64,000 nt of DNA, from contig CAWFAK010000007.1 of NCBI GenBank assembly GCA_963813715.1, positions 800,001 to 864,000 of the forward strand, written 5' to 3'. This document shows positions 15,601-60,554 of this stretch, piece after piece. Numbering within the stretch: position 1 is the first letter of the stretch; each line of letters starts with the position of its first letter. This stretch comes from an uncultured Planctomycetaceae bacterium (GTDB taxonomy: Bacteria > Planctomycetota > Planctomycetia > Planctomycetales > Planctomycetaceae). Below the pieces are notes generated by a model. That model was not told the origin of the DNA and searched no databases. It was given only the letters and a program-made list of their open reading frames with translations. Position numbers and translations under genes: made by a program.

Positions 15601-15620
15601 GCACTGTCAATGGAGCTTGG

Positions 15621-35652: not shown

Positions 35653-35723
35653 GAAAAATCAGTGACTGGACTTCGACGACTGCCATTTTTCGCGTCGCCA
35701 ACTCTCACGGCGGAACCGGGGCC

Positions 35724-35926: not shown

Positions 35927-36069
35927 ACAGGAATCCAAATAAAGTGCTTGACCGTCGCCCACCGCGGGATTCCAATCTGGGTGGGTAACGGCTCCCGCAG
36001 TGACAAGACGATCGCAACTGCGAACGCCAGAAACACCTAAGTCGTGGTTCGAGCTGGAGTCGGCTATCC

Positions 36070-36705: not shown

Positions 36706-36890
36706 CCCGTCGATGCCTCCGATGCCGCCACCGGCGGCAAAGCATGCTGATGAGTGTCGCTCAAGTCGGCTCTTGCCGCAGCACTTGGCTCACGCGAGTC
36801 GACTTCCGCCTCACGGAAAACTCCTTCCTTGTCCAACTCCGTTCAGACTGGGGAGACTTGGGACACTCGAACTCCAGAATCCGGAGGCCG

Positions 36891-37097
36891 TTTCTCAGGA
36901 ACTCAAACGTTTTCTGTGACGGCGAAAATCGACCGTTTGACGGGAGCCGCCGCTTGCCTCGTCCCGGATTCACATACGTTTTGTGACGCACGATTTTCGT
37001 GCCGGGAACTCAAGCGTTTTGTGAGAATCGCTCTTGACTGAATGATGGCCGCGGAATTGGGTTGAAGGGCAGCGCATCAAACGAACGTTTTTCGATT
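36891..37097 (+). repeat. res-like module-boundary site, divergent full copy A3
   Basis: gaactcaaacgttttc, gaccgttt, cacatacgttttg, gaactcaagcgttttg, aaacgaacgtttttc; spacings 27/38/71. Confidence 0.8.
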
Positions 37098-37288
37098 TGA
37101 TTCTATCCGCCCGCACGGGGCTTTGCGGATGACGGGAGCAAGCTCCGACCAGCAAGAAATCGCGGTCCCGTCCGAACTACACAAGAACGGCTTCCGGCTG
37201 TGTCGGAATGATGTTGTGCCGCCGTCCAGACGTTGGCGCGCTGCACGGCGGTCTTATTTCAGTGCGTGAGCGGTGGATGCGCCGGTCT

Positions 37289-38886: not shown

Positions 38887-38993
38887 TCATTAGGTTCGGT
38901 AGAACCGGTCGTCTCGATGCTGGCCAACGGACAAACTGGCAGTGCGCCGAGGTTGAGAGGCGGCCGAGAGCCGGCAGAAGCTGCGCAGCTTTC

Positions 38994-40261
38994 CTACTTG
39001 TCGGCTTGGATCGCGCGCACAGATTGCCCATTTGCAAGGGGGGCCGGGCTGGAAACCACGATCTGCTCGTCCCCGGAGATCGGTATCCAGTGTCCCTCTG
39101 CGGCGGGCGATTCGGGCGTCTTCTGTAACATCAGCACTTCGATGAGTTCGCCCCCTTTGAGACCAATTTGCAAAGGCGTGCGAATCGCCTTGCCGTTTTG
39201 GACCCGGTAGCAGACTGCCTGATTTCCTTCGGTGAGGATGGCCGCGTCGGGCACGGTCCAGACGTTGGCGTGCTGCACGACAATGCTCGCTTGAACGTAC
39301 ATGCCAGGCAGCAGTTTCCCCTGCGGGTTCGGCAGGTCGATTTCGGTGCGAAGCGTGCGTGACCGCGGATCAAGGGCCCGCGCGTTGCGGGTGACCGTGC
39401 CGTGAAGCGGCTCTCCTCCCGCGCCCTGCACCTGGAGGCTGACCGGGTCGCCGTCCTTAATCCACGGGGCATCGCTGCCCGGGATGTTGACAAAGACCCG
39501 CACCGGATCGATCTGACTCAAGACAAACAGGGGCTGACGCGTGGTGCCTGTCGCTGGCTGCACAAAATCCCCCACGCTGATGTTGCGCTGCGTGACGACG
39601 CCTTTGTAGGCCGCCCGAATCTCCGCGTATTGCAGCATGGTCCGAGCGTAATCGCGGTTGGCCTTGGCGACTTCGAGCTGCGCTTCGGCCGTGGCTTCGT
39701 CCGCCTTGGCCTTCACCACGCCGGCTCGAGCGGCCTCGAATCCCAGCTGGGTCTCGTCGACATTTTCCTGATCGAGAACGCCGCTCTTTCCGACTCGTGA
39801 CAGCCGCTCATACTGAGATTGTGCACGCCTGAGTTGAGCGTCGGCCGTGAGGATGGCCGCCTTGGCTTGTGCGACCTGTGCGGCCGCGTGGCGAACGGCG
39901 GCCTGCTTCTGCTGCACTTCGACCTCCATCTCGGGGACGTGCAGCACGGCCAGAATCTGGCCCTCTTTCACATAGTCACCGATGTCCGCGTTCCATTTTT
40001 GCACGTAGCCGGTGATGCGGGCGTAAATCGACGTTTCCTGGAACGGCTCAATATTGAATCCCGGCTGCTCGAAGGGATGCAGCACAGTCTTTCGCTCCGG
40101 TCTGACAAGGCGCACCGTCTGTTCGGCCGCCGCCGATGGCGCCCCGCTTGCGCCAGTCTTGGACGCGCTCGGCAAGCCCTGCTCGCAGCCCGTCAGGAAG
40201 GCCGCGACAAGGACGCCGCCGATCAGACGAAGTGTTACGAGGCGCTACTCACGGCTGACAT
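38994..40261 (-). CDS. RND periplasmic adaptor (MFP); 5' end frameshifted
   Basis: Lipobox LTGC; IYARITGYV, EIRAAYKGVVTQRN, RTLRTEIDLPN..GKLLPGMYV. Confidence 0.88.
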
Positions 40262-43200
40262 GGTTCCCTTGCTGCCGATCGCAATAGGGGCTGCCTGCGT
40301 CGTCCGGATCGAGCGAGGCCGACTGGACGCCGGCCCGTCCTTGGAACATCACAAACATCGCGGGCAACACAAGGAGCGTCGTAATCATGGAACCGGAGAG
40401 CCCCCCGATGACCGCCCGCGCGAGCGGGGCCGTTTGCTCTCCGCCTTCGCCGATTGCCAAGGCCATCGGAATCATGCCCGCGATCATGGCGCAGCTGGTC
40501 ATCAGAATCGGACGGACGCGGTGCCGGGCGCCGTCGATCGCCGCGTCGTTCGCGGCGGTCCCTTCGCGTCGCGCGCGTTCGGCAAAGGTGACCAAGAGGA
40601 TCGCGTTGGCGACCGCGACCCCGATGGCCATGATCGAACCCATAAACGATTGGATGTTGAGCGTGGTCCGCGTGGCCCACAAGACGAGCACGACGCCGGC
40701 AAGCACGGCCGGAATGGTGCACACGACCGCCAGCGCCAAGCGGAACGACTGAAAATAGGCTGTCAGCAACAGCAGGATCACGATCACCGTCAACAGCAGG
40801 CCGGCCGTCAGGCCCTCATAAATTTTCCCACCGGCGAGCGCTCCGAACATTTGCTGCATCGGCACAATTTGGCCCCGCACGTCGACCGTCGCACCGCGCG
40901 GGACCTCGCCGGCTGCCTGCAACGCCTGCGAAACTCGGCGCGAAACTCGGCCCAGGTCTTCGCCTTCGATATTCGCGGTCATGCTGATCAATCGCTTCAT
41001 GTTGTAGCGATCATATTCGCCCGGTACCGTCCCCTCGTGAATTCGCGAGACATCCTGCAAAAAGACCTGTCCGGCATGGTCCATCGGGACGCCCGAGCCG
41101 CGTCGGCTTCGTCCAGAGCCCGTATTCGTGCTTCCAATGGGCACCACGCCGATTTGCGCGGCCGAGTCCATGCGGGCGATCGGAATTTCCACCTGCACCT
41201 GATAGCCGATGCCCGTGTTGGAGTCGCGCCAGTAATTCGGCACAAGGAACCGGCTGGAAGATGTCGCCGCGACCAGCGAGTTGGCGACTCCCTGCGCCGT
41301 GATGCCGCTCGCGCCGGCCAGTTCGCGGTTCACAGTCACTTCGACCGCCGGATAGTCCTGGGACTGAACGAAGTGCAGGTCGCGGAGCGACGCGATTTTT
41401 TCCAGCTCCTGCCGAATCTTGTTGGCGAACGCCTGGTTGTCGGACATTTTCGGCCCGCTCACCGCGATTTCAATCGGCGTGGGCGAGCCGAAACTCATCA
41501 CCTCGTTAACGATATCGGCCGGCTCGAACGAGAGTTTGATCCCGCGCACTCTTTGAGCGGCCACCTCGGTTGAGACCTTTTCAGCCGCCAGTTTCTCGCG
41601 CAGCGAGTGCTCGAGAATATCCGGCAGCTCGTGACGCAGGTCCTCCTTGAGTTCGGCCACATGCACGCCGCTGCCTGACTTGAGGGCCACGCGCAGCACG
41701 GCCTCTTCCGGTCCGCTCATCCACAAATACACGGTGTTGATCGGATAGCTGGAAGGGATCAGCCCGACGTAGCCGAGCGAGATCGCCACGTTGTCCGGCC
41801 GAACTTTGTTCTTGATCGCGTTGAGTGCCTCGATCGCGAGCTGTTCGGTGACCTCGATGCGGGTGCCGGTCGGTGCCCGCAAGCGGAGCTGGAACTGCCC
41901 CGTGTCGACGGTCGGAAAAATCTCCCGACCGAGTTGCCCGCCGGCAAACCAGACCAGCCCCACGGCCGCCGCCAAGTAGATCGGCACGCCGACCCAACGC
42001 AGCGGCATCAGGCTGCGCACGAGTGCCGTATAGGCCGCACTCAGTCCGCCGCGCTCGCGGCCGGAGTCCTTTTCATGGCTTGCTTGCGATTGGTGCACGT
42101 GCCGCAGCAGCCAGACCGACACGACGGGCACGAACGTGCTCGACAGAAAATAGCTCGCCACCATCGCAAAGCCGACCGCCAGCGAAAGGGGCACAAACAG
42201 GGCCCGCGCCGAGCCTTCCATGAAGAACGACGGGATGAAGACGGCCAGCACGCACAGCATCGCCAACAGTCGCGGTACCGCCGTTTCATGATTTCCGCGC
42301 CGGACCGCGCGGGCGATGTTGGGCGTGTGCTCAAACTGCGTGTGGATGTTTTCGACCTCGACCGTTGCCTCGTCGACGAGAATGCCGACCGCCAGCGCGA
42401 GCCCGCCCAGCGTCATCAGGTTGATCGTCTGACCCGTCAGCCATAACCCGACGATGCTGCTCAAAAGGGCAAACGGGATATTGAGCACGACCACGATCAC
42501 GCTTCGCCAGTCGCGCAAGAACAAGAGCACCATCAGCCCGGTCAGCACCGCTCCCAACAGGGCTTCCGTGCCGACGCCCCAAATGGCCCGCGTCACGTAC
42601 GGGGACTGGTCGAACTCGAAACTGACGTCGATGTCTTCCGGGACAGCGGCCCGCATGTTCGGAAAGGTTGGCCTTCACGGCATTGACCACGGATAGAGTC
42701 GACGCGTCGGCTCGCTTCGTCACCACGATGTAGACGGCCCGTTTTCCGTTGACGAGCGCATAACCCGTCGGGATGTCGGTGCTGTCTTCGATCGTGGCCA
42801 GGTCGCGTAGGTAGACGTCGGTGCCCGGGCGCACCGGAATGCTTCCCAGATCCTTCGGATTCACGACCATCGCGTCGACGGGCACGATGGGCATTTGGTC
42901 CTTCACCCGGATGTTCCCGGATGGACTGATGGTGTTCCCGGTCACCAGCGCCTGAACGACTTCCTCGGGCGAAATGTTGTAGGAGCGCAACCGGTCGGGG
43001 TCGGTGCGGATCACGATCGTTCGCTGGTTGCCCCCGAACGGCGGCGGGGCCGAGACCCCCGGCAGGCTGGCGAACATCGGCCGAACCTTGAACAGAGCCT
43101 GATCCTGGATCTCGCCGATGGTCTTCGTCTTGCTCGACAACACCAGATAGCCGACCGAAACGTTGCCCGTGTCGAAGCGCATTACAAACGGCGGCACCGT

Positions 43201-43566
43201 GCCCGGCGGCATGAAGGCCCGCGCCCTGTTCACGTAGCCGATGGTCTCGGCCAGGGCCTGCGCCATGTCGGTGCCGGGGTGGAAGTAGAGCTTCATCAGG
43301 GCGGCGCCCTGGATGTTCCGTGATTCGACGTGATGAATGCCGGAGATGTAGAGGAAGTGATACTCGTAATAATTGGTGAGCAGGCCCTCCATCTGCCCGG
43401 GGTCCATCCCGCCGTAAGGCTGCGCCACATAAACGACGGGCAGATTGAGGGAGGGAAAGATGTCTACCTTCATCCGCGTCACGGCGAGGCCGCTGCCGAC
43501 CACGACCGCGGCAATCCCCACCATGACGGTGATCGGATGACGCAGTGCGAAGACGATGGGATTCAC
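40245..43566 (-). CDS. RND efflux permease (AcrB/CzcA-like), frameshift near 42660
   Basis: [52 protein letters not shown]. Confidence 0.92.
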
Positions 43567-43644
43567 GAAACTGAGATCCCGGGCCGGTGGCTTGATGACG
43601 GATCCGCCGGCATTCCCTGAGCGCGGACAGAAAACGCAGATTCC

Positions 43645-44046
43645 CTAGGCCTTCTTTGCACGGTCGTTTCTTCGCGGCCTGTGGGCTTGTGGTAAATTCC
43701 GTTTCCGTCGCAAGGCACGAAACGGCTCGTCCTTGTCCTCCAAAACTTCCGAGACGAGCTCCAAGAGCTTCTTTCGGGCGTCGGCGAGGACTTGTCGTCC
43801 GGCGCTCGTCGCCTGGTAATACTTCCGCTGCTTTCCGGCGACCACTTGGTGGCGGCTCTTCAGGTAGCCGAGTTCCTCCAGCATATGGAGCGTCGGATAC
43901 AGCGTCCCCTGGCTGAGCCGGTACCCGTGCCGTACCAGCTCCTCGGTGATTTCGGCTCCATAAATCGGCTCCTTCGTCGCGTGATAGAGGATATGCAGAC
44001 GAATGAAGCCGTGAAAAAAATGCCGTGTAACCGGATCATGAGCCAT
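43645..44046 (-). CDS. PadR family transcriptional regulator
   Basis: IYGAEITEEL..HGY.LSQGTLYPTLH.LEELGYL...RKYYQATSAG. Confidence 0.9.
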   Translation of the reverse strand: MAHDPVTRHFFHGFIRLHILYHATKEPIYGAEITEELVRHGYRLSQGTLYPTLHMLEELGYLKSRHQVVAGKQRKYYQATSAGRQVLADARKKLLELVSEVLEDKDEPFRALRRKRNLPQAHRPRRNDRAKKA

Positions 44047-44195
44047 AGTGTTGAACTTCGATGTTGATTTCCGACATAATATCGCGGCGACTTTGAGCGC
44101 GGCAAGTGGCGCTCCCGGGAAGAACCAAGGATTCACGCTTCGCCGACCGAGTCGACTTTCGATAGACCGCAGAACAGCTCCAAAGGGAGAATGTC

Positions 44196-44768
44196 ATGAG
44201 GCGCCACTGGCCGATCGTCGTCGCCCTTTTTGGTGGGCTGTGCCTTGGTATCGCGTTGGACGACCACGGCACCGGTCGCCGGACAGAAGCGAAAGAGGGC
44301 CCGAGGGTTCAGGATTCGGAGATCGCCGCGCTCAAGGCGGAAATCCAGGTCCTGAAGGACAGGGTGCCGGATCAGGCTCATGCGATGCAGGACGTCGCGA
44401 ATCAGTTCACCAACGTGTGGTTCGCGGAGGGAAAGCAGCACTGGGAACTGGCGAACTTCTACCTCGGGGAGACACGCAACCATCTGCGCTGGGCCGTGCG
44501 GATCATCCCGAAGCGCAAAGACCGCGCCGGGCGCGAAGTCGACCTGGTTTCAATCCTGCAGTCGGTGGAAAACGGCGCCTTGAAGCAATTGGAGGCGGCG
44601 ATCAAATCAAAGAATGACGAACGTTTTGTCGCAGCATACAAGTTCTCGCTGGAGAGCTGCTACGCGTGCCACAAAGCAGCGGACAAGCCGTACCTGCGAC
44701 CGCAGATCCCGACTGGACCCGGGACGCAGATTATCAATTTCGATCCAAGGGCAAAGTGGCCGCTGTGA
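44196..44768 (+). CDS. Exported helical protein with one heme-c motif (cytochrome c'-like)
   Basis: N-terminal signal/TM segment; C-terminal SCYACH. Confidence 0.65.
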   Translation: MRRHWPIVVALFGGLCLGIALDDHGTGRRTEAKEGPRVQDSEIAALKAEIQVLKDRVPDQAHAMQDVANQFTNVWFAEGKQHWELANFYLGETRNHLRWAVRIIPKRKDRAGREVDLVSILQSVENGALKQLEAAIKSKNDERFVAAYKFSLESCYACHKAADKPYLRPQIPTGPGTQIINFDPRAKWPL

Positions 44769-45003
44769 TTGGGCGGAACGTTTAGCCGAGCCCGGCGTGC
44801 CGGCTTGCTCTTGAGTTGGCCCGACCGGTCCGTTCAGGCTAATTGGCGAAACAAGGTCGCCTGCAAGATCTCGGCTAGGATGTGGTGCCAATTCAACCAC
44901 GCAATCGCTCTAACTCCAGTTCACACAGACGTGCAGCGCGACGCGAGCTGCGACCCACTGGGTCTCGGCCGCGGCAGGCCAATTCGTCCTTCGCAGCTGC
45001 CGG

Positions 45004-45142
45004 TCGCCCGAATCTCAAACCTTTTTCCGGACACGCCAAAAAACGACCGGATTGCCATTCGTTTTCGCGGAATGCAGACTCGGGCTGCGAGGGCGGATCG
45101 AACACGCTGAAATCGGCAGCAGAATTCGAACGTTATTCGACG
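45004..45142 (+). repeat. res-like module-boundary site, copy A4 with internal deletion of subsite 2
   Basis: aatctcaaacctttttccgg..gaccg joined directly to gattgccattcgtttt; aattcgaacgttatt 71 bp later. Confidence 0.8.
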
Positions 45143-45470
45143 GCGTCCGCCGGCCCACATTCGACGTGACCGACGTCCGATCAGCGCGATCGACTGGGGC
45201 GAACCTAGTTGACGATTGTTGTCACCGCCCCCTGCGGCAAACGTAGAGAATGACGGATCCCACCAGCGCGAGGATCAAGACTAGGAAAAATCCCCTGCAT
45301 GTGCGTTGCTTGGTGCTGCGAGGGCGCTCATCGATTGGATCAGGCTCAATATCGCCGTGCATCATGGCCCCTTTTGCGTGCCCTTGTGGATGGATCACAT
45401 CGGTTCGGCGAAGGAGCCAAGGGGCAAGGCTCCAGTTCAGTGTTTGTGGCCAGGATGGGCGTCCGCCGTT

Positions 45471-46115
45471 TCAGCGATTCTTCATCACGATTCGGTGCAC
45501 CACGCATGTGACGTCGTCGCAGTAGTCGATCGCCTGCTCGACTAGTTCGTAGAGCTCCTTCCACTTGATCACTTGGAAGGCGTCGAGGCCGCCATCGAAG
45601 AGCTGTGCCAGAAACTGGTGGTGGATGTTGTCGCCCTCCTCCTCCGCTTGATGGACGACGATTTTTAATTCATCGACCGACGCGGTATTCTCCGGCGGTT
45701 TCCGGTCTTTGATGTGGCGCAGGCCAGACACTGCGATGGCCATCAGGTGGGTGGCCTTCAGGAGAACAGCGCATTGGCTGACAAAGTCTTGGCGAACCAC
45801 GACGATCTTGTAAAACATCATCCGCTGGCCGGCAGCGTCGATCCTGTCGACCACGTCGTCGATCCGCCAAATTAAGTCATAGACGTCCTCTCGATCGATC
45901 GGCGCGAAGTAACGACGCTCGAGTCGATCGAGCGTCTCGTGCGTGATCTTGTCCCCTTCGCGTTCCCCGTCAATGATCGCCGTCACCAACTTGTTGCCCT
46001 GGTCATCCCCCTTTTTGGCTAAATCTGCCAGAAGCTCGGCGCAGTGCACTGCGTTCTGGGCCGCACGCTCGAAGGAGTCGAAATAGTGGACGTGTTTGGG
46101 CAGCAGGTTAAACAT
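45471..46115 (-). CDS. DUF47 / PhoU-like phosphate-transport accessory protein
   Basis: MFNLLPK..YFD.F, EREGDKITH, FAPIDREDV, EEEGDNI, IKWKELYE.VEQAIDYCDDV. Confidence 0.88.
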   Translation of the reverse strand: MFNLLPKHVHYFDSFERAAQNAVHCAELLADLAKKGDDQGNKLVTAIIDGEREGDKITHETLDRLERRYFAPIDREDVYDLIWRIDDVVDRIDAAGQRMMFYKIVVVRQDFVSQCAVLLKATHLMAIAVSGLRHIKDRKPPENTASVDELKIVVHQAEEEGDNIHHQFLAQLFDGGLDAFQVIKWKELYELVEQAIDYCDDVTCVVHRIVMKNR

Positions 46116-46153
46116 TCGAGCTCACAGTCTGGTTCGGAGGATCCCGTGGCATT

Positions 46154-49100
46154 CTATGCCGGCTCTCCTGGAATCGATTGGAGGTCGTCCTCAGATTTGT
46201 TGGGCACAACGAGCGAGTAGACGCAGGGGACCACCAACAGGGTGGTCACAAGACCGGCGATCAGGCCGCCGAGGACTGCCCGGCCGAGAGGAACGTTTGC
46301 TTCGCTGCCCCGGCTCAATCCCAAAGACATTGGGATCAGGGCGAAGAATGTCGCCAGCGCGGTCATGACGACTGGCCGCACACGGACCGCGGCCGCGCGG
46401 CGGATCGCCTCCATCGGGGACACACGGTCCGCTTTGCGCACGTTTTCCGCAAAGTCGATCAAGAGGACCGTGTTGGAAACCACGATCCCCACCATGAAGA
46501 TCACCCCCAGCAGCGATTGGACGTTTAGAGCCGTGCCCGTGAAGTACAGCATCAGGATCACTCCGACCAGGCCGACCGGCACCGCCGACAGCACGACCAG
46601 CGGAGTCAAGTACGACCGGAAGAGGGCCACCATCAAGAAGTAGATCAAAAGCACGGCCCCGGCCATTCCCAGTGCCTGGAACCGGAACGTCTGCTGCATC
46701 TTTTGATACTCGCCGACCACGACGATTCGTGCCCCCTCCATCACCTTTTGGGCGGGGTCCTCTGGGTCGAACGGGCTCCAGCCACCATCAGGCCGCTCTT
46801 TGCCGAATCTCGCGACAACGCGGTTTACGTCCTCAGCCACATGCCCGATGTCCCGGCTATGAACCCCCATCGTGAGATCCATCGTGGCCTGAAGGTTCGT
46901 GTGGTTGATCTCGGCCGGCACTTCAACGCGCGGGAGCGGGACCTTCACAATGTTCCGCAGCGGGATCGGCTGCTTCTGTCCGGGGCCAGTGATCGGAATG
47001 TCGAGCAACGTATCGACCGACGAGATGTCCTGCTCCGGATACTGCACTCCGACGAAATACTGGTTGGAACTCTTTGGGTCGATCCAGAAATTCTTCTTGT
47101 TGAACTGGACGCTCGAGTTGAATGCCGAGACCACGTTTTGCATTACGTCGGCCTGATTCAGCCCGAGAGCGGACGTCTTCGCCTGATCGACCTCGAGAAC
47201 ATATTGCGGATAGTCGAGCCGCTGGATAATGCGGGCGTCAACCACTCCGTCGATGCCCTTAACCTGGTTCAAAATCCGCTCGGCCACTTTGCGGGCTTTC
47301 AGCATCTTCTTGGCCGTAATCCGGACGTTGATTGGGGTCGACTTTCCCTCGTTCATCGCCGCCCGCACCATGCCGCCCGCGTCGAAGGCGAACTCCAGGT
47401 CGGAAAATCGCGTCTCACCCGCGAACCCCTCGCGCAAGACTTGGACACTCTCCTGAGCGGACCGCGACCGTTCGCCCTTGAGCTGGACCTTGACGACTGC
47501 ATCCATCGGCCCCGCGTTCGGGGTAAACGCGGCCGACCAGTTGGGGGTCAGTCCAATCTCGCTGATCACGAGCTCGAGGTCGCCGCCGATCTTGTCTTTC
47601 ACGAACTGTTCCACCGTGGCGATTTTTTCTTCTGTTTCCTCGATTCGAGTGCCGGACGGGGCCCGGACGAAGATCTCAAATGCACCGGCGTCGACCTCCG
47701 GGAAGAACTCGCGGCGAAGCACCGGGCCAAGCAAAACGATGACGGCCGCCAGAGCCGCGAAGGCCACTCCGATCACGAGGCTGCGGGTCCGCAATGCCAA
47801 GGCCAGAACTCGGGTATAAACCGCGATTCCGGCATCGATCACGGCCTCCCACTTTTCGAACAGGCGGCCGAGCCGTCCCTTCGGGGGAGCGTTTTCGTGG
47901 TCGTTGCGGTGCTCGTAATCTTCGGAATGGGATTCCAGCGGCTTATGACCGTGCGACTTTTAGCCACACGGCACACCGAGCCGGGACGAACGTCCGCGAT
48001 AAGACGTAAGCGATTGCCATGGCAAACGCGACGGAAAGGAACATCGGGCGGAACAGGAACGCCCCGAGCCCGGGCATCAACGCCAGCGGAAGCAAGAACG
48101 AGCAGGGTGCAGAGGGTGGCAATCAACTCCGGCAGCGCCACCTCGCTGGCACCCAGATAAGCGGCCTCGACGGGATTCGCTCCCAGGCCCAGGTGGCGGT
48201 GTGTGTTTTCGAGGCAAATGATCGCGCTGTCCACAAGCGGACCGATGGCGAGCGCGAGCCCGGCCAGGGTCATCAGGTTGATCGTTTGATCGAGCCCGTA
48301 CAGGCAGGCGACGGTTCCCATCACGGCAACCGGAATGGTCATCACCGCGACCATCGTCATCCGCCACTCGCCCAGGAACAAGAGGATCACCAGCGGCAAA
48401 GGATGGCGCCGAGCACGCCTTCTTCCGCCAGGCTTTCGATGGCCTTGCGGACATACACCGACTGGTCCATGACCACTTGCAGATCGACGTCGGGGGTGGT
48501 CAGCCGCTCCTTCATGTCCGGCAGATTCTCTTTGAGGCTGTCGACCACGCTGAGGGTGCTGTAGCCCGATTGTCGGTAGACGGGGATGTAAACCTGCCGG
48601 CGACCGTCGACCCGAACCACGTTCGTCTGAATCGTGGCGGCGTCTTTCGGGACCGCCACCTCCTTGAGGAAGATCGTTCGCCCGGACGCATCGGTTTTGA
48701 TCGGCACGTCGGCCATGCGCTCCACGGTGTCGTACATCGCGTTGGAGTCGAGCGTGTAATCGAACTTGCCGAATTTCGCGTCGCCGGCCGGGATGAAGAT
48801 GTTGAACCGATCGAGTGCATTCATCACATCGGTCGGAGCAAGGCCGTGGGCCTGGAGCCGGTCCCGATCGAGGTATGCGAGGATGGTGCGGATCTTTCCC
48901 CCATACACCACGGGCGCATTCGCGCCGCGCGACGACATAATCATCATTCGGACCTGATAACGAGCCGTGTCGTAGAGGACCGACTCGTTCTGGGTCTTGC
49001 TGTTCAGAGCGACCAGGCAGACCGGCGTCGACGAAGTGGGATCGTAGGGCAAGATGACCGGTGGCAGGGTTCCCGGAGGCAGCGTCGGAATTTCGACGGT

Positions 49101-49439
49101 TACGAGAGAGTTCACTTGGGTTAAAGCGCCGGACGGATCGACGTCGCCGGCAAAGAAATTTCGGACGATGCTGACGCCCAGGAGCGACCGTGACTCCTGA
49201 CGCAAGATCCCGGCGGCCTGCCCGCTGCCGCGCTCCATCCGGGCCGTGATTCCGGACTCGACGCTGGTCGCGGCCATGCCGTTGTAGAACGTCAAAACCT
49301 GGACGGCCGGGCTCCGATACACCGGCAAGATGTCGGCGGGAATCGCGAAGAGCGAAACGGCCCCGCCCAACAGCACCGTCAGGATCAACACAGTAATCGC
49401 GCGGGGATTACTGAGCGAAAAGCGGATCAAACCGTTCAT
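46154..49439 (-). CDS. RND efflux permease, second paralogue, several frameshifts
   Basis: IPADILPVYRSP, LAGLALAIGPLVDSAIICLEN, RVRPVVMT, PLGRAVLGGL. Confidence 0.9.
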
Positions 49440-49556
49440 AGATCAGGTCGTTTCACGGCCTGATCCTGAATCGGGGTACTCCGGCCGGAGCAGTCATGGG
49501 GTGAGTTATGGCGTGTCGCGTGCGATCGCCGATTAATGGCTCGCGTAGGTCTGTTT

Positions 49557-50958
49557 TCAGTCGGTCGCCGCAACGGCGTTGCCCTCGCTCAACGGTCCGG
49601 CAGCCCGAACGATGACCCGATCCCCCGCGGTCAATCCGGAGAGGATCTCGACCTCCGACCCGTTGTCGGCCCCAAGCTGGACCGAGACGAACGCGGCTTT
49701 ACCGCCGCGGGCGAGCCGAACCACTCCCTTTCCGTCACCTGCCTTCCCGAACAGAGCGGCTGAAGGGATTCGGAATGCGCCCGGCGCCCCAACCTGCAGG
49801 CTGAGAGTGACGCGCCCAAACATTCCGCGACGGAGCGTCCCATCCGGGTTTTTGAGATGCACCTCGGTTCGCATCATCCGGGTCTGCGGATCCTCGGATG
49901 CGGCCAGCCGAGACACTTCCACTTTGTCAGCGCCGCGGGTCTTGAATACGACGCCGGGCAGCGCATCCACCTCGACCACCGCCGGGTCGCCGCAGTCGAC
50001 GAACGGGACGTCGCGTTCGGGCACCTGAATCACGACGCGCATGACGTCGGTCGCGCTCGACCGCCAGCACCGGCACCCGCTCGCCCTTCGCATAGCCGGC
50101 GTCAGCCGATCGAATGAAATCACCCGGATGGAAATTCCGCTGGGTGACCACTCCGGTATACGGAGAGCGAATGATGGTGTAATCGAGCAGGACTTTCGAC
50201 TGCTCGAGCTTGTCCTTGGCCGTTTCGATCTCCGCCTCTGCGTAGCGCAGATCGGCCTGAGCCTGCGAGACCCGGGCCCGGGCGGCGGCTTCCTTCTGCC
50301 TGGCCGCGTTCACTGCCTCGGCCGCAGCCAGATCGCTCGACACGGCCGCTTGGAATTGGTCCTCATTCTCATCCGCAAGCTTGGCTTCAAGGGAGCGGCT
50401 GGCAACAAGGTCTCTAATCCGGTCCCGCTGCTTCTCACGATATGCCCGGTACGACTCCTTGCTCTTCTTTTCGGCCTGGGCCAGCGAGATCGCCGCGGTT
50501 GCCACGCCGAGGTCAGCTTTGGCCGAGGTGATGGCGGCCTTCATCTGGTCCACCCGCGCCTCGGCCCGGGCGACATTGGCTGTGTCCTCTTTTATCTGTT
50601 TCTCGTATTCCGGGACCGAGATGCGGGCCAGAACATCGCCGGCGTGCACCCGGTAGCCGATATCGACGTTCTGCTCAACGAGGAAGCCGGAGACTTTGCT
50701 GTATAAGTCGGCACACTCGAATGGTTCGACCGATCCGGGTTGGGTGCACAGACGATCGATACCACCGGAGCGAGGAGTAATGACTTTGACCGAGATAGCC
50801 GCCGAGGTCTCGCCGTTTTTGGCGCCGTCGAGCTGCGTTGGTCGCACGACCTCAGCAGCGGCCTTGCCGCGAACGAATACGTATCCGGTGCCGGCGCCGA
50901 CCGCTCCCAGCACCGCGAGAGCCAACAACCACCGCTTCCTCTTGCCTGATGAACGCAT
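49557..50958 (-). CDS. RND periplasmic adaptor (MFP), frameshifted near 50070
   Basis: LYSKVSGFL, IRSPYTGVVTQRN, TRMMRTEV.LKNPDG.LRRGMFG. Confidence 0.88.
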
Positions 50959-51036
50959 GGACTGAATGACGACCCTGACGGCCGACCTTTCGTGATTGGA
51001 TCCCGACTCGAGACGATGCCGAGGCACGGACTCTTA

Positions 51037-51053
51037 AGCAAAGGACAGGCCGA
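51037..51053 (-). promoter_or_regulatory. sigma54 -24/-12 promoter for the second RND operon
   Basis: Minus strand TCGG-CCTGTCCTTT-GCT (GG-N10-GC); adjacent NtrC-type regulator; candidate UAS at 51163-51198. Confidence 0.6.
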
Positions 51054-51236
51054 AATGAATGGATGCCGAGAGCATGTCCGAAAGTCACAGTCAGCGAATG
51101 ACTTGTGCGATCGAAGGAGAAAATGGCTTGAACCGGCGGTCTCGAATCCAAGCGGAAGGTTCGGGAGAAAATCCCAAATGGTTGGGATCTATTCCCAAAA
51201 GTCGGGCGAGACCGCGAAGGTGGGAGAGCGTCGCTT

Positions 51237-52683
51237 TCAGTCCGGCATCCCGGTGAAGTCGCTGGCTCCCTTGGCGGGGGTGATCCCCAGTTCGCGAAGC
51301 TTATTGCGAAGCGTCTTCCGATCGATGCCGAGCCGTTCGCAGGCGTTGCCCAGATGTCCGTGAGCGTGCCGAAGGACTCGAGTAATCAGCTCCCGTTCGA
51401 CCGCTGTGAGGACCTTGTGGTACATCTCCTTCTCGCCGCCGCTCAGCATGGATTCGATGGTTCCCACGACGTCGAGATCAGAGGGGCTCTGGCCGACGAT
51501 TGGAACCTTGGCTGAATCCTCTCCGGCCGCAACAAGCCCCGGCGGAAGAAACTCCGCGAGGATCGTCCGTCCGGTCGTCCTCAGGGTCGCTTCCTTGATC
51601 GCACCGCGCAGCTCGCGAACGTTGCCCGGCCACGGATAACGTCGGAAGATTTCCAGCACCTCGGGCGCAAAGCCACGAACGTCTCGCCCCGACTCGCGGG
51701 CAAACTGAGCCAAGAAATGGTGAGCCAGCTCCTCGATGTCTTCGGTCCGATCGCGGAGCGGAGGGAGCCGGATCGTGATCTCCTTCAGACGGTAGTAGAG
51801 ATCGCTTCGGAACCGGCCATCGACGATAAGTTGTTCCAAGTTATAGTTGGTCGCTGCCAGCACCCGGACTTTGCGTGCTGATCGATTTGCCACCGCCGAC
51901 TCGCTCGAACGTTTGATCCTGCAGAAACCGGAGCATTTTCGCCTGGACGGCCGCCGGCATGTCTCCGATCTCGTCCAGAAAGAGGGTGCCGCCGTCCGCC
52001 TGCTCGAATCGGCCGATCCGCCGCTGGTCGGCGCCGGTGAACGCGCCGGGCTCGTGACCGAAAAGTTCGCTCTCGACGAGCCCTTCGGGAATCGCCGCGC
52101 AATTGATCGCCAGAAAGGGCTTGTCCGCTCGCTGACTGTGCTCGTAAATGGCGCGTGCGACCAGCTCTTTCCCGGTGCCGCTCTCACCCAGGATCAGCAC
52201 CGTCACGTCCAACGGAGCGACCCGGCCGATCTGTTTGGAGATCTCCCGCACGAGAGGAGACCGGCCGACAATTCGTTCCTTGCGCGCTTCATCCGGAGGG
52301 ACGGCGGGTTCGATCCTGAGACGGGCCGCTTCGAATGCTCGCTCCAGCAGTCCGCTCATTTGCTCGAGGTCGAAGGGCTTGCCGATATAGTCGAACGCCC
52401 CCCGCTTCATTGCCTCGATCGCCGTCTCGGTCGTTCCGTGCGCGGTCAAGAAGATGACTGGACGCTTGGGATCGGCCGCCCGAATCCGATCAAATAGATC
52501 GAGGCCGGATCCATCCAGAAGCTGGAGATCCAGCACGATCACGTCCGGCTGGTCCTCCTCGACCCGCTGCCAAGCCTCGGCGACCGTTCCGGCCGAGGCC
52601 ACCTCGACATCAACCGTCGCAAAGACCCAGTGGAACGACTGGCAGATCAGCGGTTCGTCATCAATGACCAGCAGTTTCGGCAT
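51237..52683 (-). CDS. sigma54-dependent response regulator (NtrC family), frameshifted near 51880
   Basis: REC domain [44 protein letters not shown], Fis-type HTH. Confidence 0.93.
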
Positions 52684-54157
52684 GCAACTCTTCTGCGGTT
52701 GGCAGGGTGAGCGTAAAACAGGCGCCGCCACCGGAGCGGTCGGCAGCAGTCAGTTCGCCCCCGTGCTCCCGTGCAACCCGCCGGGCAACAGTCAGACCGA
52801 GCCCGGTCCCGGTCGGCTTGGTGGTTGCGAAAGGGGTAAACAGCCTACCCACGAGTGTTCGATCAATCCCCGGACCGCTGTCGCTCACCTCGACCCGAAT
52901 CATACCGCCCTTGCCTGTTCCGGTGGAGACAGTGACTTCGCCTCCGGGCGGGGTGGCATCGATCGCATTGAACAGCAGGTTGGTGAGGACCGACAAAAAC
53001 TGATCACAGTCGATGGCGGCGCGGAGCGGTTCGTGCGAGGAATTCAGCCGCACGGAGATTGATTTCGTCTCCGCCCGGCTTTGTGCGACGTCGATGGCCG
53101 CCTCGACGAACGTCCGAATGTCGTGTGTGCGGAGGTCGCGGGGCCCGGCCTGGGCAAAATCCATCAGCCCCTGCACAGTCCTTTCGATCCGAGCGACTTC
53201 CTGGAGCAGCAGGTGCAGACGGTCCACCGTGAGTGGGGTCGGGTTCTGTGGCCGTACCGCAGCTTGAAGCAGGAACTTCACGCCGGTAAGAGGGTTTCTG
53301 ACCTCGTGCGCGACTTCGGCTGCGAGTTCCCCGACGGCCGCGAGCTGCTCCGCCCGAAGCAACTCCCGCTCCTGCTCCTGAAGCCGCTGGCAGACTGCGC
53401 TGACCCGGGCGACTACTCGGTCCAGTTGCTTGTCAAGATCTCCGAAGTGGGCCGGCGCCTGGACGGTCATTTCACCGACCTCCTGATCCAGGTGTGCTTG
53501 AACTGCTTGGACTCGGATCGACAAGCGAGCGACGCGTTGCGTCAGCGCCCGGGCGGTCGCGTACCCGCTCAAGAGACCCGCGAGGACGCCTGCGAACCCA
53601 AGGGAGAACAGCACCCGACCGGCCCAGGCGGTCTGGGTCTCGCTTCGTTCCAGGCTGTCCCTCATTCGCTTGCTTTGGCGATCCGCCAATTCGACGCACG
53701 GCGCCAGCAGGTCGCGCATGTGGTGCGCGTCCGACCACCGGGCCACATCGCTGTTGCTAATCTTTGCCGCGGCGGGAAGTCGGTCGATCGCGAGATTTTC
53801 CCGGTACCGCGCGTAGTCTTGCACGATTCTTTGAGACAGTTGGGCATCCTCCCGAGTCGTGGCGGTCTGCTGAATCGCCGCGAGCGCCGCGTCGACATGC
53901 GCCAGATCAGCCCGCACGGTCTCGCGACGAGCGTCCGTCGGATCCGCAAAGAGCACCAGCGAATGGACCCGCAGGTGCCGGAGCTGGAGCTGAAGATCGA
54001 CGGCGGCCTCCCTCGCGGCTGCGTCCTGGCTGACAGCCCGCGCCAACTCCGCCTGAAGTCGATTGATATACCAAGAGCCGGCCAGGCAAGCGACCGCGAC
54101 CAGAATCCCAAGCGCAACGAGCGGCCCCGAGTAAATGTTGAACAGAAACTGGCGCAT
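52661..54157 (-). CDS. Sensor histidine kinase
   Basis: Two TM segments; [37 protein letters not shown]. Confidence 0.93.
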
Positions 54158-54415
54158 TGGGCCAATCCTCTTGCTGCAAGCTCGACTTCGGATTCGGAGT
54201 CCCCATGCATTCTTGTCTTTTATTACTTCGACTGCCAATCCCGTGGCTCACGGAGTCTCGCTTCTTGCCGGCACACAAAATGGCCTTGCAGTGCCATAGC
54301 GCTCGAGCACCTAGGCTCGACGAGGCCCTGTCGGAGGTCGCGTTTGCCGTTACGTGATTCAGAGTAATCGTCGGTACTATTTGCGCGGGGGTTCCTCCAA
54401 GAATCGCAGCACTGA

Positions 54416-54497
54416 AGTGTCCATAATCTCAACCGTTTTCTGCCATTCCCGTTAATCGACCCAGTTTCTGAAACTCGTTGCCCAGGATCTGGGAACG
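54416..54497 (+). repeat. res-like site, left-arm copy B2 upstream of the resolvase
   Basis: gtgtccataatctcaaccgttttctgccattcccgttaatcgacc closely matches the left arm of A2; followed by cagtttctgaaa and a hairpin. Confidence 0.8.
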
Positions 54498-54559
54498 CTG
54501 TGAAGACAGTCGGCGTCCGATATCGAGACGCACATCAAGTCTGACAACAGAGCAATTCC

Positions 54560-55150
54560 GTGATCGCCGCTTCCGACGGCGGTCGCCTTGTCGGATACGC
54601 TCGGGTCGGCACGGAAGGCCAAGAGCTGGCACTCCAACTCGATGCCCTGCGAAATCACGGAGTCGCGAACGAGCTGATTTTCACCGACAATGCGTCGGGC
54701 GCAAAACGTGACCGACCAGGGCTAGATGCCTGCTTCCGCGAGCTTCGCGCCGGCGACATCTTGCTGGTCTGGCGTCTCGACCGACTGGGAAGATCGGTCC
54801 GCCACCTGGTCACGCTGATCGATCAGCTTCAGGACCTTGGCGTTGGATTCCGGTCCGTCTGCGATGGCGCCATCGACACCACGACGCCCTCGGGCGAGTT
54901 AATCTTTCACATCTTCTCGTCACTCGCGCAATTCGAACGCCGACTCATCCAGGAGCGGACCAAAGCCGGGCTCGCCGCCGCTCGTGCGCGCGGTCATACG
55001 GGTGGTCGGCCGCCACTGACTCCAAACGACGCCAAAGTTGCGCTCGCGAATAAACTCTTCCCCGACAAGTCAGTGGATCCGGATGACATCTGCGCGACGT
55101 TGAAGATTTCGAAGACCACCCTGTACCGTTATGTGGAGATCGCGACAGGA
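54560..55150 (+). CDS. Small serine recombinase (Hin/Tn3-resolvase family); catalytic Ser appears as Gly; ORF reads through to 55438
   Basis: GYARVGT, DRPGL, LLVWRLDRLGRS, AIDTTTPSG, LAQFER..IQERT.AGLAAARARG..GGRPP, ISKTTLYRY. Confidence 0.93.
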
Positions 55151-55159
55151 CGCGTGATT

Positions 55160-55345
55160 CGGTCGCGGAATCACTCTCGTTTACGCCGACACACCGGGGC
55201 CGCCGGGCCAAAAACTCATACGATTCTTCGGACGCTTTTAGGACGCCAGATTGCCATACGTCTTGGCGGAATCGGGCCGCAGGCTGTGAGAGTGGGCGAA
55301 ACGCCCGGAAAACGGCGGCGTAAATCGAACCATTTTCGGAACAGC
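55160..55345 (+). repeat. res-like site, right-arm-only copy C downstream of the resolvase
   Basis: aaaactcatacgatt, attgccatacgtcttggcggaatc, aaatcgaaccatttt; spacings 38/71. Confidence 0.8.
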
Positions 55346-55467
55346 CATTTAGCTCCATTCACGGGAACATTTGTGGACAAATGTCGTGTCTTCAACCATC
55401 TTCACATGGGGATCCCGGGTGCTGCATTCGCCGCCTGATTCGCCTCCACTTCGCCGAGAGACTTCCA

Positions 55468-57668: not shown

Positions 57669-57751
57669 CGTCCGGTAATGTCAACCGTTTTCTCGAACAC
57701 CCGGAAAATGACCAATTTCGGGAATGGCGCGTCACCGCGTTGCGGTGACGC
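57669..57751 (+). repeat. res-like site, left-arm copy B3
   Basis: gtccggtaatgtcaaccgttttctc, gacc 28 bp later, aatttcggga, hairpin gcgtcaccgc-gtt-gcggtgacgc. Confidence 0.75.
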
Positions 57752-58110
57752 CGGTGCCGGGCACGAACCAATGCGCAGAGATCGCGAGGATGGCCTTCGG
57801 CCAGGGCGTCTCCTGGCCGAGACGGGTCCAGCATTCGGTGTACGTGCTCGTCAGTACCGCGTCCATCGGGTTGCCGTGGCCGATGAAGTACGAAGGTACA
57901 ACGAGTCGGTCGGCAAAGAAAAGGTCGCCACGGCTCTACTCCTCTGTCATGTGCCGTCAGATCGGTCGTCGTGCTCAGCGGTGCCCGCTGACGTTCCTTC
58001 AGTTCCTGCTCCGCGGCCGGGGTAAAGTTGTGTCATCATGTTCCTCCGATTTGCTTGCGGTTCTTGGGTCCATAATCTCAGTCCCTTCGAACGATCAAAG
58101 GAGTACACCC

Positions 58111-60050: not shown

Positions 60051-60199
60051 AGGTGAGGTTCGTGAGTACGCGATTGGTTCGGCCAAATGGAGACTGGGTC
60101 GGTAGAGCGGTGGGTCGCGAGTTCGGCAATCAGCATCAAGAGTGTGCGATCCGGTCATTCTCTGCGCAACAAGCGAATTTCGTCGTCACTCCTGCCGCT

Positions 60200-60400
60200 T
60201 TCCCGTAATCTCAAACCTTTTCCGGGACACGAAAAAAAAAGGACCGATAAGTGCCGCCTCGACCAGAAACCCATACCTTTTTCGGCAGGTGATTCTGCGT
60301 ACCGGATTGCCATACGTTTTGTGGGAATCGAGCCTCGAATGGCGAGGGGCGGGCGAAGGCCCGGAATTCTGGGACGTAAATCGAACGTTTTTCCGGAACG
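60200..60400 (+). repeat. res-like module-boundary site, full copy A5
   Basis: aatctcaaaccttttccggg, gaccgataagtgccgcc, gaaacccataccttttt, attgccatacgtttt, aaatcgaacgttttt; spacings 30/39/71. Confidence 0.85.
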
Positions 60401-60554
60401 CGTCCAATCCAGCGGCCTTGACTCGTTGCAAGTGGTTTCATTCCGATATGTAAACCGTCCGGGCAACAGCGACGGTTCTGAGTGATGCACCCTTTCCTGA
60501 CGAGCAATCGACATCGGTCCGCATGGCCACCGCGCAGAACGCGCAGACCTTGTT

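Follow-up and report, generated by a model that had tools for sequence, protein, structure and literature searches.

The DNA analyzed here, called the window below, is a stretch of 64,000 nucleotides from an uncultured Planctomycetaceae bacterium, and positions without a contig label refer to it. Between 54414 and 55347, on the plus strand, it carries a split copy of a repeat of about 200 nt. The left arm (54414 to 54461) and the right arm (55199 to 55347) are collinear halves of this repeat, and between them lie a control region (54461 to 54559) and a small serine recombinase pseudogene of 207 codons (54560 to 55183).

The encoded protein matches PF00239 with an E value of 1.4e-45 (residues 11 to 146 against positions 2 to 144 of the 145 in the model). 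The closest solved structure is the Gin invertase (4m6f), with E values of 5e-44 in the structure-chain search and 5e-42 in the residue-level alignment, and gamma-delta/Tn3 resolvase was matched at 1e-31. The alignment with Gin extends to query residue 189 and to residue 176 of the 193 in the chain, so that it spans the DNA-binding domain; a separate Pfam helix-turn-helix match was absent from the protein at E values of 0.01 or less. Codon 17 (54608 to 54610) is GGC, encoding Gly where the family has its catalytic Ser. In the window motif YARVGTEGQ, this Gly17 is aligned with the Ser of RVST in Gin, and the Ser is kept in six other copies (VST). Codon 208 (55181 to 55183) is TTA at the position of the family's TGA stop, due to which the open frame (54560 to 55438, 292 amino acids) is overlong; sister copies have 207 codons. 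With its Ser changed to Gly and its stop lost, the window copy is, judged from its sequence, an inactive small serine recombinase. An analogy to attB/attP integration sites, drawn in the initial annotation, does not suit the enzyme class, as the enzyme is a 207-residue protein of the resolvase/invertase type and no large serine integrase. Large serine integrases comprise about 450 to 600 amino acids, have a large C-terminal domain, and use two unlike sites.

Identity to the TnpR proteins of Tn3-type transposons amounts to 57 to 66%, and the recombinase descends from the resolvases of such transposons. A homolog from Lamprocystis purpurea (locus L021, 61% identical) sits in a canonical Tn3-type transposon with perfect 41-nt terminal inverted repeats, in the order Tn3 transposase (DUF4158 and DDE_Tnp_Tn3), palindrome, and resolvase gene. 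The Tn3-type transposase domain PF01526 was found in none of the 12 genomes of the genus; controls were positive in 2 of 14 well-known genomes. The NCBIfam XisF and Ccr models matched the catalytic domain alone and far under their cut-offs (99 versus 375 bits and less). The Mpi family model NF009949 gave 54 bits against a cut-off of 272, so the recombinase is not a member. In this genome (G000), no other copy of the recombinase was detected at E values of up to 1e-3 in one search or up to 1e-5 in another, and the sole relic elsewhere is a 48-nt piece of the 5' region at C5:611886-611933.

Anatomy of the split copy

The left arm resembles a gene-less copy located upstream, with 88% identity over 43 nt between 54419 to 54461 and 35725 to 35767 (BLAST of the whole 7.5-Mb genome, E value of 1.6e-7). 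In an nhmmer model built from 12 copies, the left arm occupies positions 10 to 57 and the right arm (55199 to 55347) occupies positions 65 to 221 (E value of 2e-24), leaving only about 7 model positions absent between them. A 3-copy model placed 55199 to 55340 at its positions 54 to 203 (E value of 1.1e-21). Cutting out the gene in silico, either as 54462 to 55178 or as 54461 to 55190, in each case yielded one match to positions 12 to 221 with 118 bits and an E value of about 1e-37. Natural full copies scored 84 to 207 bits with the same 12-copy model, a range that is inflated because 12 of those copies trained it. These results bear out the initial annotation in that the gene lies inside a split repeat copy and that removal of 54462 to 55178 rebuilds a full site. 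Its match between the left arm and the upstream copy, which it termed A2, also stands. Its restart of the right arm at about 55179 does not, since likeness to canonical sites resumes near 55199 and the stretch from 55179 to 55198 consists of the last codons of the gene and a spacer. The cleanest cut in silico runs from AC to AC (54461 to 55190, 730 bp).

The left arm holds the outer subsite X1 (about 54425 to 54440) and the left half of the crossover core (54446 to 54458), as delimited by nhmmer and by a near-identical ortholog in genome G009. The complete core (54446 to 54473, plus strand) has a 13+2+13 arrangement, TTCCCGTTAATCG / AC / CCAGTTTCTGAAA, with its central AC at 54459 to 54460. 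It overlaps the control region, which contains three short palindromes (54463 to 54477, 54481 to 54493, and 54507 to 54527). This region is kept in all seven aligned copies and corresponds in position to the stretch with subsites that precedes tnpR in L021 and L014; its palindromes probably serve as the remaining resolvase subsites, together with a promoter. In the right arm, nhmmer and a pattern match to X2 located a gene-linked X2 (55212 to 55233), X3 (about 55246 to 55275), and X4 (about 55321 to 55339). An ortholog of this arm in G004 is 87% identical over 2.5 kb from 55213 on.

The case for the core rests on positional homology because the dyad symmetry of the cores in this genus is weak, one 9/13 palindrome per 240 windows being not unusual by chance. 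A 28-bp palindrome centered on AC is found at -116 to -150 of the gene in L014, L021 to L024, and L026. Its arms pair at 8 to 12 of 13 positions, with 12 in L021 and 11 in L022, L024, and L026. The GACC of the window aligns with this palindrome, which lies about 130 nt upstream of the gene in the Tn3-type relatives. In the sister copy L002, no 13-2-13 palindrome within the 260 nt upstream is better than the one at the corresponding position (9/13 paired). The right half of the core occurs in three versions: CGATAAGTGCC in gene-less sites, CCAGTTTCTGAAA in the gene-bearing unit, and CGTTTGACGGGAG in a second subfamily, the last being nearest to the palindrome of the Tn3-type relatives. Conservation across homologous loci, on which the initial annotation had staked its claim, was found both for the AC, present at the corresponding position in 7 of 7 aligned genus loci, and for the right arm, which directly follows the 3' end of the gene in 9 of 10 genus-type loci among L001 to L057 (the exception is L003).

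The outer subsites, X1 to the left of the core and X2 to X4 to its right, are imperfect palindromes, each with the pattern CCGGAAAC-6 nt-GTTTTCGG. By eye, their half-sites appear to resemble the core half-sites at another spacing, as in the accessory subsites of res. The gene-linked type of X2 gave eight matches in the 12 genomes, all of them next to a gene for the recombinase or a fragment of one and none in a gene-less site. An origin of the outer subsites as relics of a Tn3-type terminal repeat was rejected, as the 41-nt Lamprocystis repeat matched four sites, both window arms, and both flanks of L010 no better than 500 shuffles (P of 0.05 to 0.95). The lone match of this repeat with a P of 0.046 is a 9-mer just ahead of the start codon.

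Repeat family and exchanges at the AC

The repeat has 33 matches in this genome. It is present in every one of the 12 genus genomes, with copy numbers of 25 to 100, and in 0 of 29 genomes outside the genus; the genomes compared are metagenome bins that are 65 to 98% complete. Full gene-less sites in the window lie at 15387 to 15608 (model positions 4 to 225, nhmmer E value of 8.6e-61), at 35716 to 35931 (A2, family D7; 1.9e-58), and at 60189 to 60408 (5e-51). A full site of the second subfamily is located at 36885 to 37108 (1.1e-37). The site at 44999 to 45140 lacks everything from the right half of the core through X2, its left arm being joined straight to X3 (model positions 8 to 58 and 120 to 213). 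At 57676 to 57760 (family D3), a left arm ending at GACC adjoins a right side of a third type (AATTTCGGGAATGGCGC...), which also occurs at C7:979668 and C7:229697. All of these are on the plus strand. A synteny block shared with G004 stops at 57721, inside the latter site. A second module, suspected after GACC at C7:979705 and C7:229735, was discarded: the common part, which includes a hairpin, is only some 86 nt long and contains no gene. Among nine left-arm-only copies in G000, six end at GACC within 1 nt and the other three extend 8 to 15 nt further. Twelve site matches share the plus-strand orientation over C7:815-950 kb.

The arm-gene-arm unit of 0.92 kb recurs in the genus. G002, G008, and G006 match the window only over 54424 to 55340 (87 to 91%) with unrelated flanks, and some sister genomes hold several copies. 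A recombinase of this type was found in none of G003, G001, and G004, yet the sites persist there with an almost invariant core. A gene placed with the core on one side and the outer subsites on the other is also seen in homologs of 62 to 65% identity from other genera. In the genomes of these homologs, no gene-less repeat family was detected; the right arm of L010, matched in three of five of them, is not multicopy and has only 34- to 39-nt pieces besides gene-linked copies. This recurrence shows that the layout is old and stable and not a transient state of integration. Distant relatives have one site per 6.5-kb locus.

In five comparisons, one left flank and arm was joined to differing right sides, or the reverse, with the switch at the AC. 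The left flank and arm of the window are shared with G009 over 2.66 kb (82.5%) up to 54461, beyond which G009 continues with a canonical, unsplit site without the gene. The left side of 35725 is joined to other right sides in both G002 and G003. The junction on G002:C7 combines its left flank and arm (95%) with the right side of C7:979705 of G000 on the opposite strand (99%). Diagnostic bases of the two parents confine this switch to an interval of about 8 nt that contains the AC, and shared identity that short cannot have caused an assembly chimera. In G003, the same left arm continues into a second-subfamily right side. Within G000, C5:6264 and C7:877276 have 2,038 bp in common (97.5%), and this shared stretch terminates no more than 1 nt from GGAC. 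A Pirellulales genome contains three copies with 99.4 to 99.7% identity, which in two of three pairs begins 0 to 5 nt from the AC. Together with the alignment of the AC at 54459 to 54460 to the palindrome center of the Tn3-type relatives, these exchanges support the crossover at GACC that had been proposed from the window alone. An inversion between two oppositely oriented sites was observed between G000 and G002.

All eight sites whose flanks were traced lie at a synteny break in at least one relative, a count made at sites alone. Megablast found no match of at least 400 nt in G000 for stretches of G002 that are rich in sites. Some breaks fall away from the AC: a second break zone lies between X2 and X3, one truncated site begins at X2 and lacks the AC, and several synteny blocks end 150 to 220 nt from a site. 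The block from 37256 to 44787 is present in G002 without sites at its ends. None of the eight traced sites showed a filled-versus-empty insertion polymorphism. For C17:789713 and C17:426329, flanks traced in 12 genomes gave no simple filled/empty pair; one of the two has a site of a different subfamily at the equal place in G006, and the other is absent from G002 with a break at the site edge.

Proposed recombination system and alternative readings

Because flanks switch at the AC in five comparisons, the repeats are best read as dispersed, multipart recombination sites. We propose, with moderate confidence, that they belong to a small serine recombinase of TnpR descent that works without a transposase partner and reshuffles blocks between them. 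Each site would consist of the crossover core (left half, central AC, right half) with X1 to its left and X2 to X4 to its right. The split copy at 54414 to 55347 would be a variant that accommodates the 0.62-kb gene and its control region of about 100 nt between the core and X2. This placement preserves the resolvase layout of a site just upstream of the gene and leaves the outer subsites downstream. Active enzyme copies in sister genomes would recombine any two sites by cleavage and rejoining at the AC, and the resulting inversions, deletions, and reinsertions would reshuffle the blocks between sites within the flexible genome. The window copy would be a fossil of this enzyme. We infer that the recombinase made the exchanges and that the X motifs are its binding sites, and likewise the manner in which the sites multiplied. 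The observations themselves comprise the anatomy, the homology, the conserved layout, the breakpoints at the AC, and the dead gene. Wild-type resolvases with full res sites are established to resolve only direct repeats in cis, so that inversions and insertions would need a relaxed selectivity.

On this proposal, a descendant of a Tn3-type resolvase persists without a transposase, and tens of copies of its site per genome now form a chromosomal repeat family. If the enzyme is responsible, this would be a natural case of a small serine recombinase remodeling a bacterial chromosome at many sites and would probably drive the weak conservation of gene order among planctomycetes. In addition, the compact pair of enzyme and site, with many natural site variants, would be suited to studying how site selectivity is relaxed.

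A more specific possibility, which we put forward tentatively, is gene shuffling in the manner of integrons. Cassettes of 1 to 20 kb, bounded by half composite sites, would be excised, inverted, and reinserted at the AC by the small serine recombinase, whose gene would be the smallest cassette. The run of equally oriented sites on C7 and its content, which is unshared between G000 and G002, fit this reading; no block was seen to move with an AC at both borders. If true, such a system would be a second, mechanistically unrelated solution to the task of the integron and would explain the mosaic, flexible genome of the planctomycetes compared here.

We consider it unlikely that the 0.92-kb unit moves autonomously as a mobile element, driven either by its own serine recombinase in the manner of IS607 or by a Tn3-type transposase that has since been lost. 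In that case, the short repeats would be nonautonomous deletion derivatives resembling TIMEs or IS101, and the resolution site within them would cause the exchanges at the AC as a side effect. The high copy number confined to one genus is consistent with this reading, as are the sharp outer limits and unrelated flanks of the unit and its several copies in some genomes. The unit has both arms in common with the short sites, as a longer gene-bearing element sharing both ends would, and, as expected for a parent element, the form with the gene is both more ancient and more widespread than the one without it. Furthermore, a miniature Tn3-derived element with a gene for a resolvase plus a res site, as well as IS101, is on record in PMC4133298. 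However, no terminal inverted repeats join the ends of the gene-bearing unit or of three full sites, which, along with the absence of a Tn3 transposase from all 12 genus genomes, argues against ordinary transposition. Target duplications are not definable because the outer limits of the sites are fuzzy, and the traced sites lack filled and empty alleles. The IS607 transposase model NF033518 reached 29 bits against a cut-off of 110, and the catalytic domain is N-terminal in the window protein. Since the gene-linked X2 does not occur in gene-less sites, the present short sites are no simple deletions of present gene-bearing units.

The initial annotation viewed the gene as an excisable module of about 0.7 kb and the full sites as its empty form. 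Accordingly, the AC-to-AC piece (54461 to 55190, gene and control region) would be a small circle integrated site specifically into a full site, with junctions like attL and attR. The rebuilt collinear site, the AC at both junctions, and the unsplit site in the G009 ortholog of the left flank speak for this, and the last 25 nt or so of the gene loosely resemble a left arm. In addition, what L017, from one Pirellulales genome, has in common with its sisters L018 and L045 is confined to the part between the AC and the approximate position of the stop codon. We nevertheless regard the circle as rather improbable. Its right junction, the second AC (55189 to 55190, plus strand), lies 5 nt past the family's stop codon, and the 15 to 20 nt next to it differ freely among copies, whereas the right half of the left junction is kept in 7 of 7. 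With the whole stretch from the stop codon to the first right subsite varying in this way, the right junction does not resemble a working half-site, and an active crossover at the second AC is not supported. The confinement of the gene-linked X2 to the vicinity of genes and gene fragments (8 of 8) means that no footprint of precise excision is seen. G004, the only ortholog of the right flank of the window, carries a canonical core and first right subsite and thus differs through X2 too, so that gene-bearing and gene-less states differ beyond the AC-to-AC piece. The layout is conserved down to 62 to 65% identity, and no copy was seen with the AC-to-AC piece between two arms that are both of the gene-less type. 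Overall, the evidence supports the module proposal only in part.

Finally, a structured RNA (guide, leader, or small RNA) or single-strand DNA hairpins with the gene in a tolerant loop, a reading prompted by the short imperfect palindrome in each outer subsite, was rejected as very improbable: no Rfam family reached its gathering threshold in the window (0 matches), RNAalifold on 18 full sites predicted no consensus structure for the plus strand (0 pairs) or the minus strand (3 pairs and -0.05 kcal/mol), and folding energies of six copies were no lower than those of shuffles (z of -2.4 to +0.8, five of six within 0.8).

Comparison with known systems

Full-text literature searches, covering titles and the beginnings of abstracts, returned no description of a system of this kind, and the nearest was a paper on TIMEs. 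According to that paper, TIMEs are short, noncoding elements with 38-bp terminal inverted repeats and target duplications that need a Tn3 transposase and are mostly single copy; the miniature Tn3-derived kind that has a gene for a resolvase plus a res site is termed TIME-RES, and IS101 holds a resolution site usable by the resolvases of Tn3 and Tn1000 (PMC4133298). The genus sites share with TIME, TIME-RES, and IS101 that they are short and Tn3 derived, but they have neither inverted termini nor a transposase and reach 25 to 100 copies.

The res and tnpR module by which Tn3-family transposons resolve cointegrates, represented by L021, is alike in having an AC-centered crossover subsite 100 to 150 nt upstream of the gene and further subsites before the start codon. 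The genus unit has extra subsites downstream of the gene and one upstream of the core. Tn3 transposons possess a transposase and terminal inverted repeats of 38 to 41 nt, both of which are missing from the genus repeats and units. Tn3-type resolvases act once per transposon, on one site beside their own gene; here, tens of gene-less copies per chromosome compare with one site per Tn3 transposon.

As in Gin and Hin, the crossover site lies just upstream of the gene, and an inversion was seen between G000 and G002. The A-rich half-sites abutting the central dinucleotide presumably correspond in appearance to hix and gix half-sites. Gin and Hin have an inverted partner site that bounds a short segment, whereas the neighboring sites in the window at 44999, 57676, and 60189 are all in direct orientation, and the multisubsite layout is resolvase-like, unlike that of Gin and Hin. 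The Mpi protein of Bacteroides is a master invertase that acts on many dispersed sites, which are short inverted pairs around promoters. The proposal of one small serine recombinase for many chromosomal sites is common to both systems, but the genus sites are single, long, and mostly direct.

Chromosomal integrons use a tyrosine integrase, IntI, and folded single-strand attC sites, in contrast to a serine recombinase and double-strand, multisubsite sites of about 200 nt. The blocks in this genus are 1 to 20 kb long and contain several genes in both directions, and unlike in integrons, neither a primary site resembling attI nor a shared promoter was seen. As in integrons, sites of the same orientation appear to border variable gene blocks in a flexible region, and the content of the array differs between sister genomes. 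Integrons and the genus sites also have in common that the crossover lies inside the site, each block carrying a part-site at either end.

The split repeat copy and its recombinase gene

The window corresponds to positions 800001-864000 of contig C7 in G000, a planctomycete metagenome bin of 7.5 Mb that is 82.6% complete. It contains a 292-codon open frame beginning at 54560; PF00239, the catalytic domain of resolvases, covers its first 146 residues (E 1.4e-45). According to the initial annotation, this gene lies inside a split copy of a repeat, and the arms on either side bore this out. On the 5' side, 54419-54461 resembles the opening of the copy at 35725, with 88% identity over 43 nt, and on the 3' side, 55199-55347 matches what remains of the repeat, with nhmmer E values from 1e-21 to 2e-24. 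The split copy is real and far beyond chance, since the arms are collinear on a model of 12 full copies (positions 10-57 and 65-221) and in-silico excision of 54462-55178 or 54461-55190 yields a single full-length model match of 118 bits. A full site begins with an outer subsite (X1), followed by the core, ...CCATCAAACG-AC-CGATAAGTGCC..., and three further subsites (X2 to X4). The X motifs are imperfect palindromes composed of CCGGAAAC, 6 bases, and GTTTTCGG; the right half of the core comes in three kinds across sites.

The nearest solved structure to the recombinase is the Gin invertase (E 5e-44), followed by the gamma-delta and Tn3 resolvases (E 1e-31), and no NCBIfam model was reached. Sister copies have 207 codons and the motif YARVSTEGQ. 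The window copy reads YARVGTEGQ, its Gly aligning with the catalytic serine of Gin, and the TGA stop of the family is replaced by TTA at 55181-55183. Judged by these two changes, the window copy, the sole recombinase of this type in G000, is dead. Full-length copies without visible damage occur in 6 of the 12 genomes of the genus (G002, G005, G006, G007, G008, and G010); G009 and G011 hold gene fragments only. Searches of G001, G004, and G003, the last being one contig of 7.7 Mb, revealed no recombinase gene of this type. Elsewhere in G000, C5:611886-611933, upstream of a dienelactone-hydrolase-like gene, matches 54527-54574, the promoter-proximal region and first 5 recombinase codons, over 48 nt at 98%; it is the isolated vestige of another copy of the gene. 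A second G005 copy (L030, contig C2, ~5.35 Mb) is cut at residue 83 beside an apparent insertion-sequence end, and from there on matches the copy at 4.37 Mb for 1,178 bp at 99.5% identity, two successive right arms included.

The split architecture and its breakpoint at GACC were conserved when homologous loci were collected. In an alignment of seven loci from the genus, the common unit extends from shortly before X1 to shortly past X4; the flanks are unrelated and the central AC is present in every locus. Three sister genomes match the window solely over 54424-55340. Among the homologous loci L001 to L057, the right arm directly follows the gene in 9 of 10 genus-type loci, the exception (L003) breaking off 36 nt before the stop. 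The left arm reached an nhmmer score in four of the six loci with upstream DNA and was visible by alignment in all six. Among 16 loci of 61 to 77% identity from other genera, five also have a right-arm-like match after the gene, and the genomes of these right-arm-bearing loci contain no gene-less repeat family. The layout that includes the gene is therefore the more ancient one, and the spread of gene-less copies is special to this genus.

Tn3-type ancestry and exchanges at the central AC

A 28-bp palindrome stands ~130 nt 5' of the gene, once per locus, in homologues of 57 to 66% identity from Lamprocystis, Competibacteraceae, and other bacteria, with more half-sites between it and the start codon. 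In the Lamprocystis purpurea locus (L021) it reads GTCTCAACAAACG-AC-CGTTTGATGAGAC, with 12 of 13 pairs matched; three more loci match 11 of 13. Across this palindrome from the Lamprocystis resolvase gene lies a Tn3 transposase gene. The element is compact (~4 kb) and ends in perfect 41-nt inverted repeats (L021:3587-3627 and L127:259-299), and the stop codon of the resolvase gene overlaps with one of these; it is a textbook Tn3-type transposon. None of the 12 genomes of the genus contains a Tn3 transposase. In the G002 sister copy, the AC-centered 28-mer is the best palindrome within 260 nt upstream (9 of 13 pairs). When upstream regions were aligned, the AC of the relatives' palindrome fell on that of the window's GACC (54459-54460); therefore, the breakpoint that the initial annotation had placed at GACC is the center of the family's crossover subsite.

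Several genomes display switches at this position. G009 has an ortholog of the histidine-kinase flank and left arm (2.66 kb at 82.5%), with similarity stopping at 54461; it then continues ...GACC-GATAAGTGCC... into an unsplit site, and the contig ends 135 nt on. G004 has orthologs of the right flank and, from 55213 on, of the right arm (87%); there they adjoin another left arm and a flank whose G000 counterpart lies on contig C6. On contig C7 of G002, a left flank and arm matching those of the 35725 site (95%) continue into what in G000 is the right side of C7:979705 (99%), a site in the opposite orientation; this junction represents a ~144-kb inversion relative to G000. Differences between the parental arms confine the switch to ~8 nt around the AC, which rules out a chimeric assembly. 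In G003, the left arm of the 35725 site is followed by a right side from the second subfamily. Within G000, C5:6264 and C7:877276 have 2,038 bp in common at 97.5%, ending at most 1 nt from GGAC, and six of nine left-arm-only pieces stop at GACC within 1 nt, the other three continuing for 8 to 15 nt. Three gene copies in one Pirellulales genome are 99.4 to 99.7% identical, with identity starting 0 to 5 nt from the AC in two of three pairs and extending 54 nt further left in the third.

Gene-less sites and genome plasticity

With the 12-copy model, G000 yielded 33 matches at E ≤0.01, counting full sites and left-arm-only and right-arm-only pieces. Contig C7 has 12 of them at 815-950 kb, all on the plus strand, and three on the minus strand at 970-1001 kb. 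The family is present in all 12 genus genomes, and none was found in 29 genomes from other genera of the family and class. Sites remain much alike even in genomes without the recombinase. No consensus RNA fold was obtained on either strand, single copies folded no better than shuffles, and an Rfam search of the window gave no match. At three places in G000 (57719-57760, C7:979668, and C7:229697), the left-arm GACC is followed by a third kind of sequence, (G/C)AATTGCGGGAAT..GCGCATCA.., of ~50 to 86 nt with no gene inside; the latter two copies add a hairpin, CTGTCCGGCTTCGGACAG. Another dispersed repeat of ~123 nt (33540-33662), unrelated to the sites, has many copies in G002 and G003 at 89 to 90%.

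All eight sites with traced flanks coincide with a break in synteny in one relative or more, a count made at the traced sites alone. The adjacent window blocks 37256-44787 and 45302-54269 are 2 Mb apart in G003. Two stretches of G002 with many sites (C6:107-170 kb, where there are 8, and C21:107-122 kb) had no megablast match of at least 400 nt in G000. Several block ends lie 150 to 220 nt from a site and not at the AC. In G002, the 7.5-kb block 37256-44787 (92%) lies inside DNA that is contiguous on contig C2 of G000, where, at the corresponding spot (C2:69269-69316), the opposite strand carries a minimal core, GCCATCAAACGACCGATAAGTGCC, instead. Paralogous membrane-transporter genes (80% over 61 nt at the seed, 42372-42432 versus 48229-48289) occur in two neighboring between-site blocks and may be duplicated cargo. 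Coding repeats with a 15-nt period (ACNGGNACNGGN...) at 23714-24209 specify a Thr/Gly-rich repeat protein.

Proposed origin of the system and its nearest described relatives

The simplest account would be a resolution module orphaned from its transposon, its multi-subsite site having spread through the chromosome and being in use, or once used, for exchanges at the AC. The main rival, an insertion-sequence-like origin with miniature derivatives, is compatible with this account. The initial annotation had also regarded 54462-55178 as an integrated or excisable ~0.7-kb module and full sites as its empty or junction form, a proposal that held only in part. It agrees with the unsplit G009 site and with one Pirellulales copy (L017) that has only the AC-to-stop stretch in common with its own sisters, but the right junction and X2 count against it. 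Whereas the right half at the left junction is kept in all seven copies, the 15 to 20 nt between stop codon and X2 vary freely. The X2 linked to the gene forms a separate type, with 8 matches at ≤1 mismatch in the 12 genomes (the window's copy has 3 mismatches), all beside the gene or a gene fragment and none in gene-less sites. No scar of precise excision was found in the 12 genus genomes. Of nine gene-linked right arms, seven group in a single clade; those of L001 and L004 differ beyond X2, which points to a second zone of breaks, less sharply placed, between X2 and X3. A break in this zone is also seen between 35725 and C6:8684 and in the 44999 site.

The gene position, just downstream of the crossover subsite, is the usual one. 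Unusual are the further subsites 3' of the gene, the tens of copies of the same site family without the gene, and the marking by gene-less copies of joints in a mosaic, strain-specific part of the genome. Judged on titles and abstract openings, the articles returned by full-text searches gave no description of such a system. The nearest described relatives, as far as the excerpted text of PMC4133298 goes, are Tn3-derived miniature elements, one of which includes both a res site and a resolvase gene, together with IS101, cited there as having a resolution site. As characterized in that excerpt, the miniature elements differ from the sites described here in their inverted termini, transposase dependence, and low copy number.
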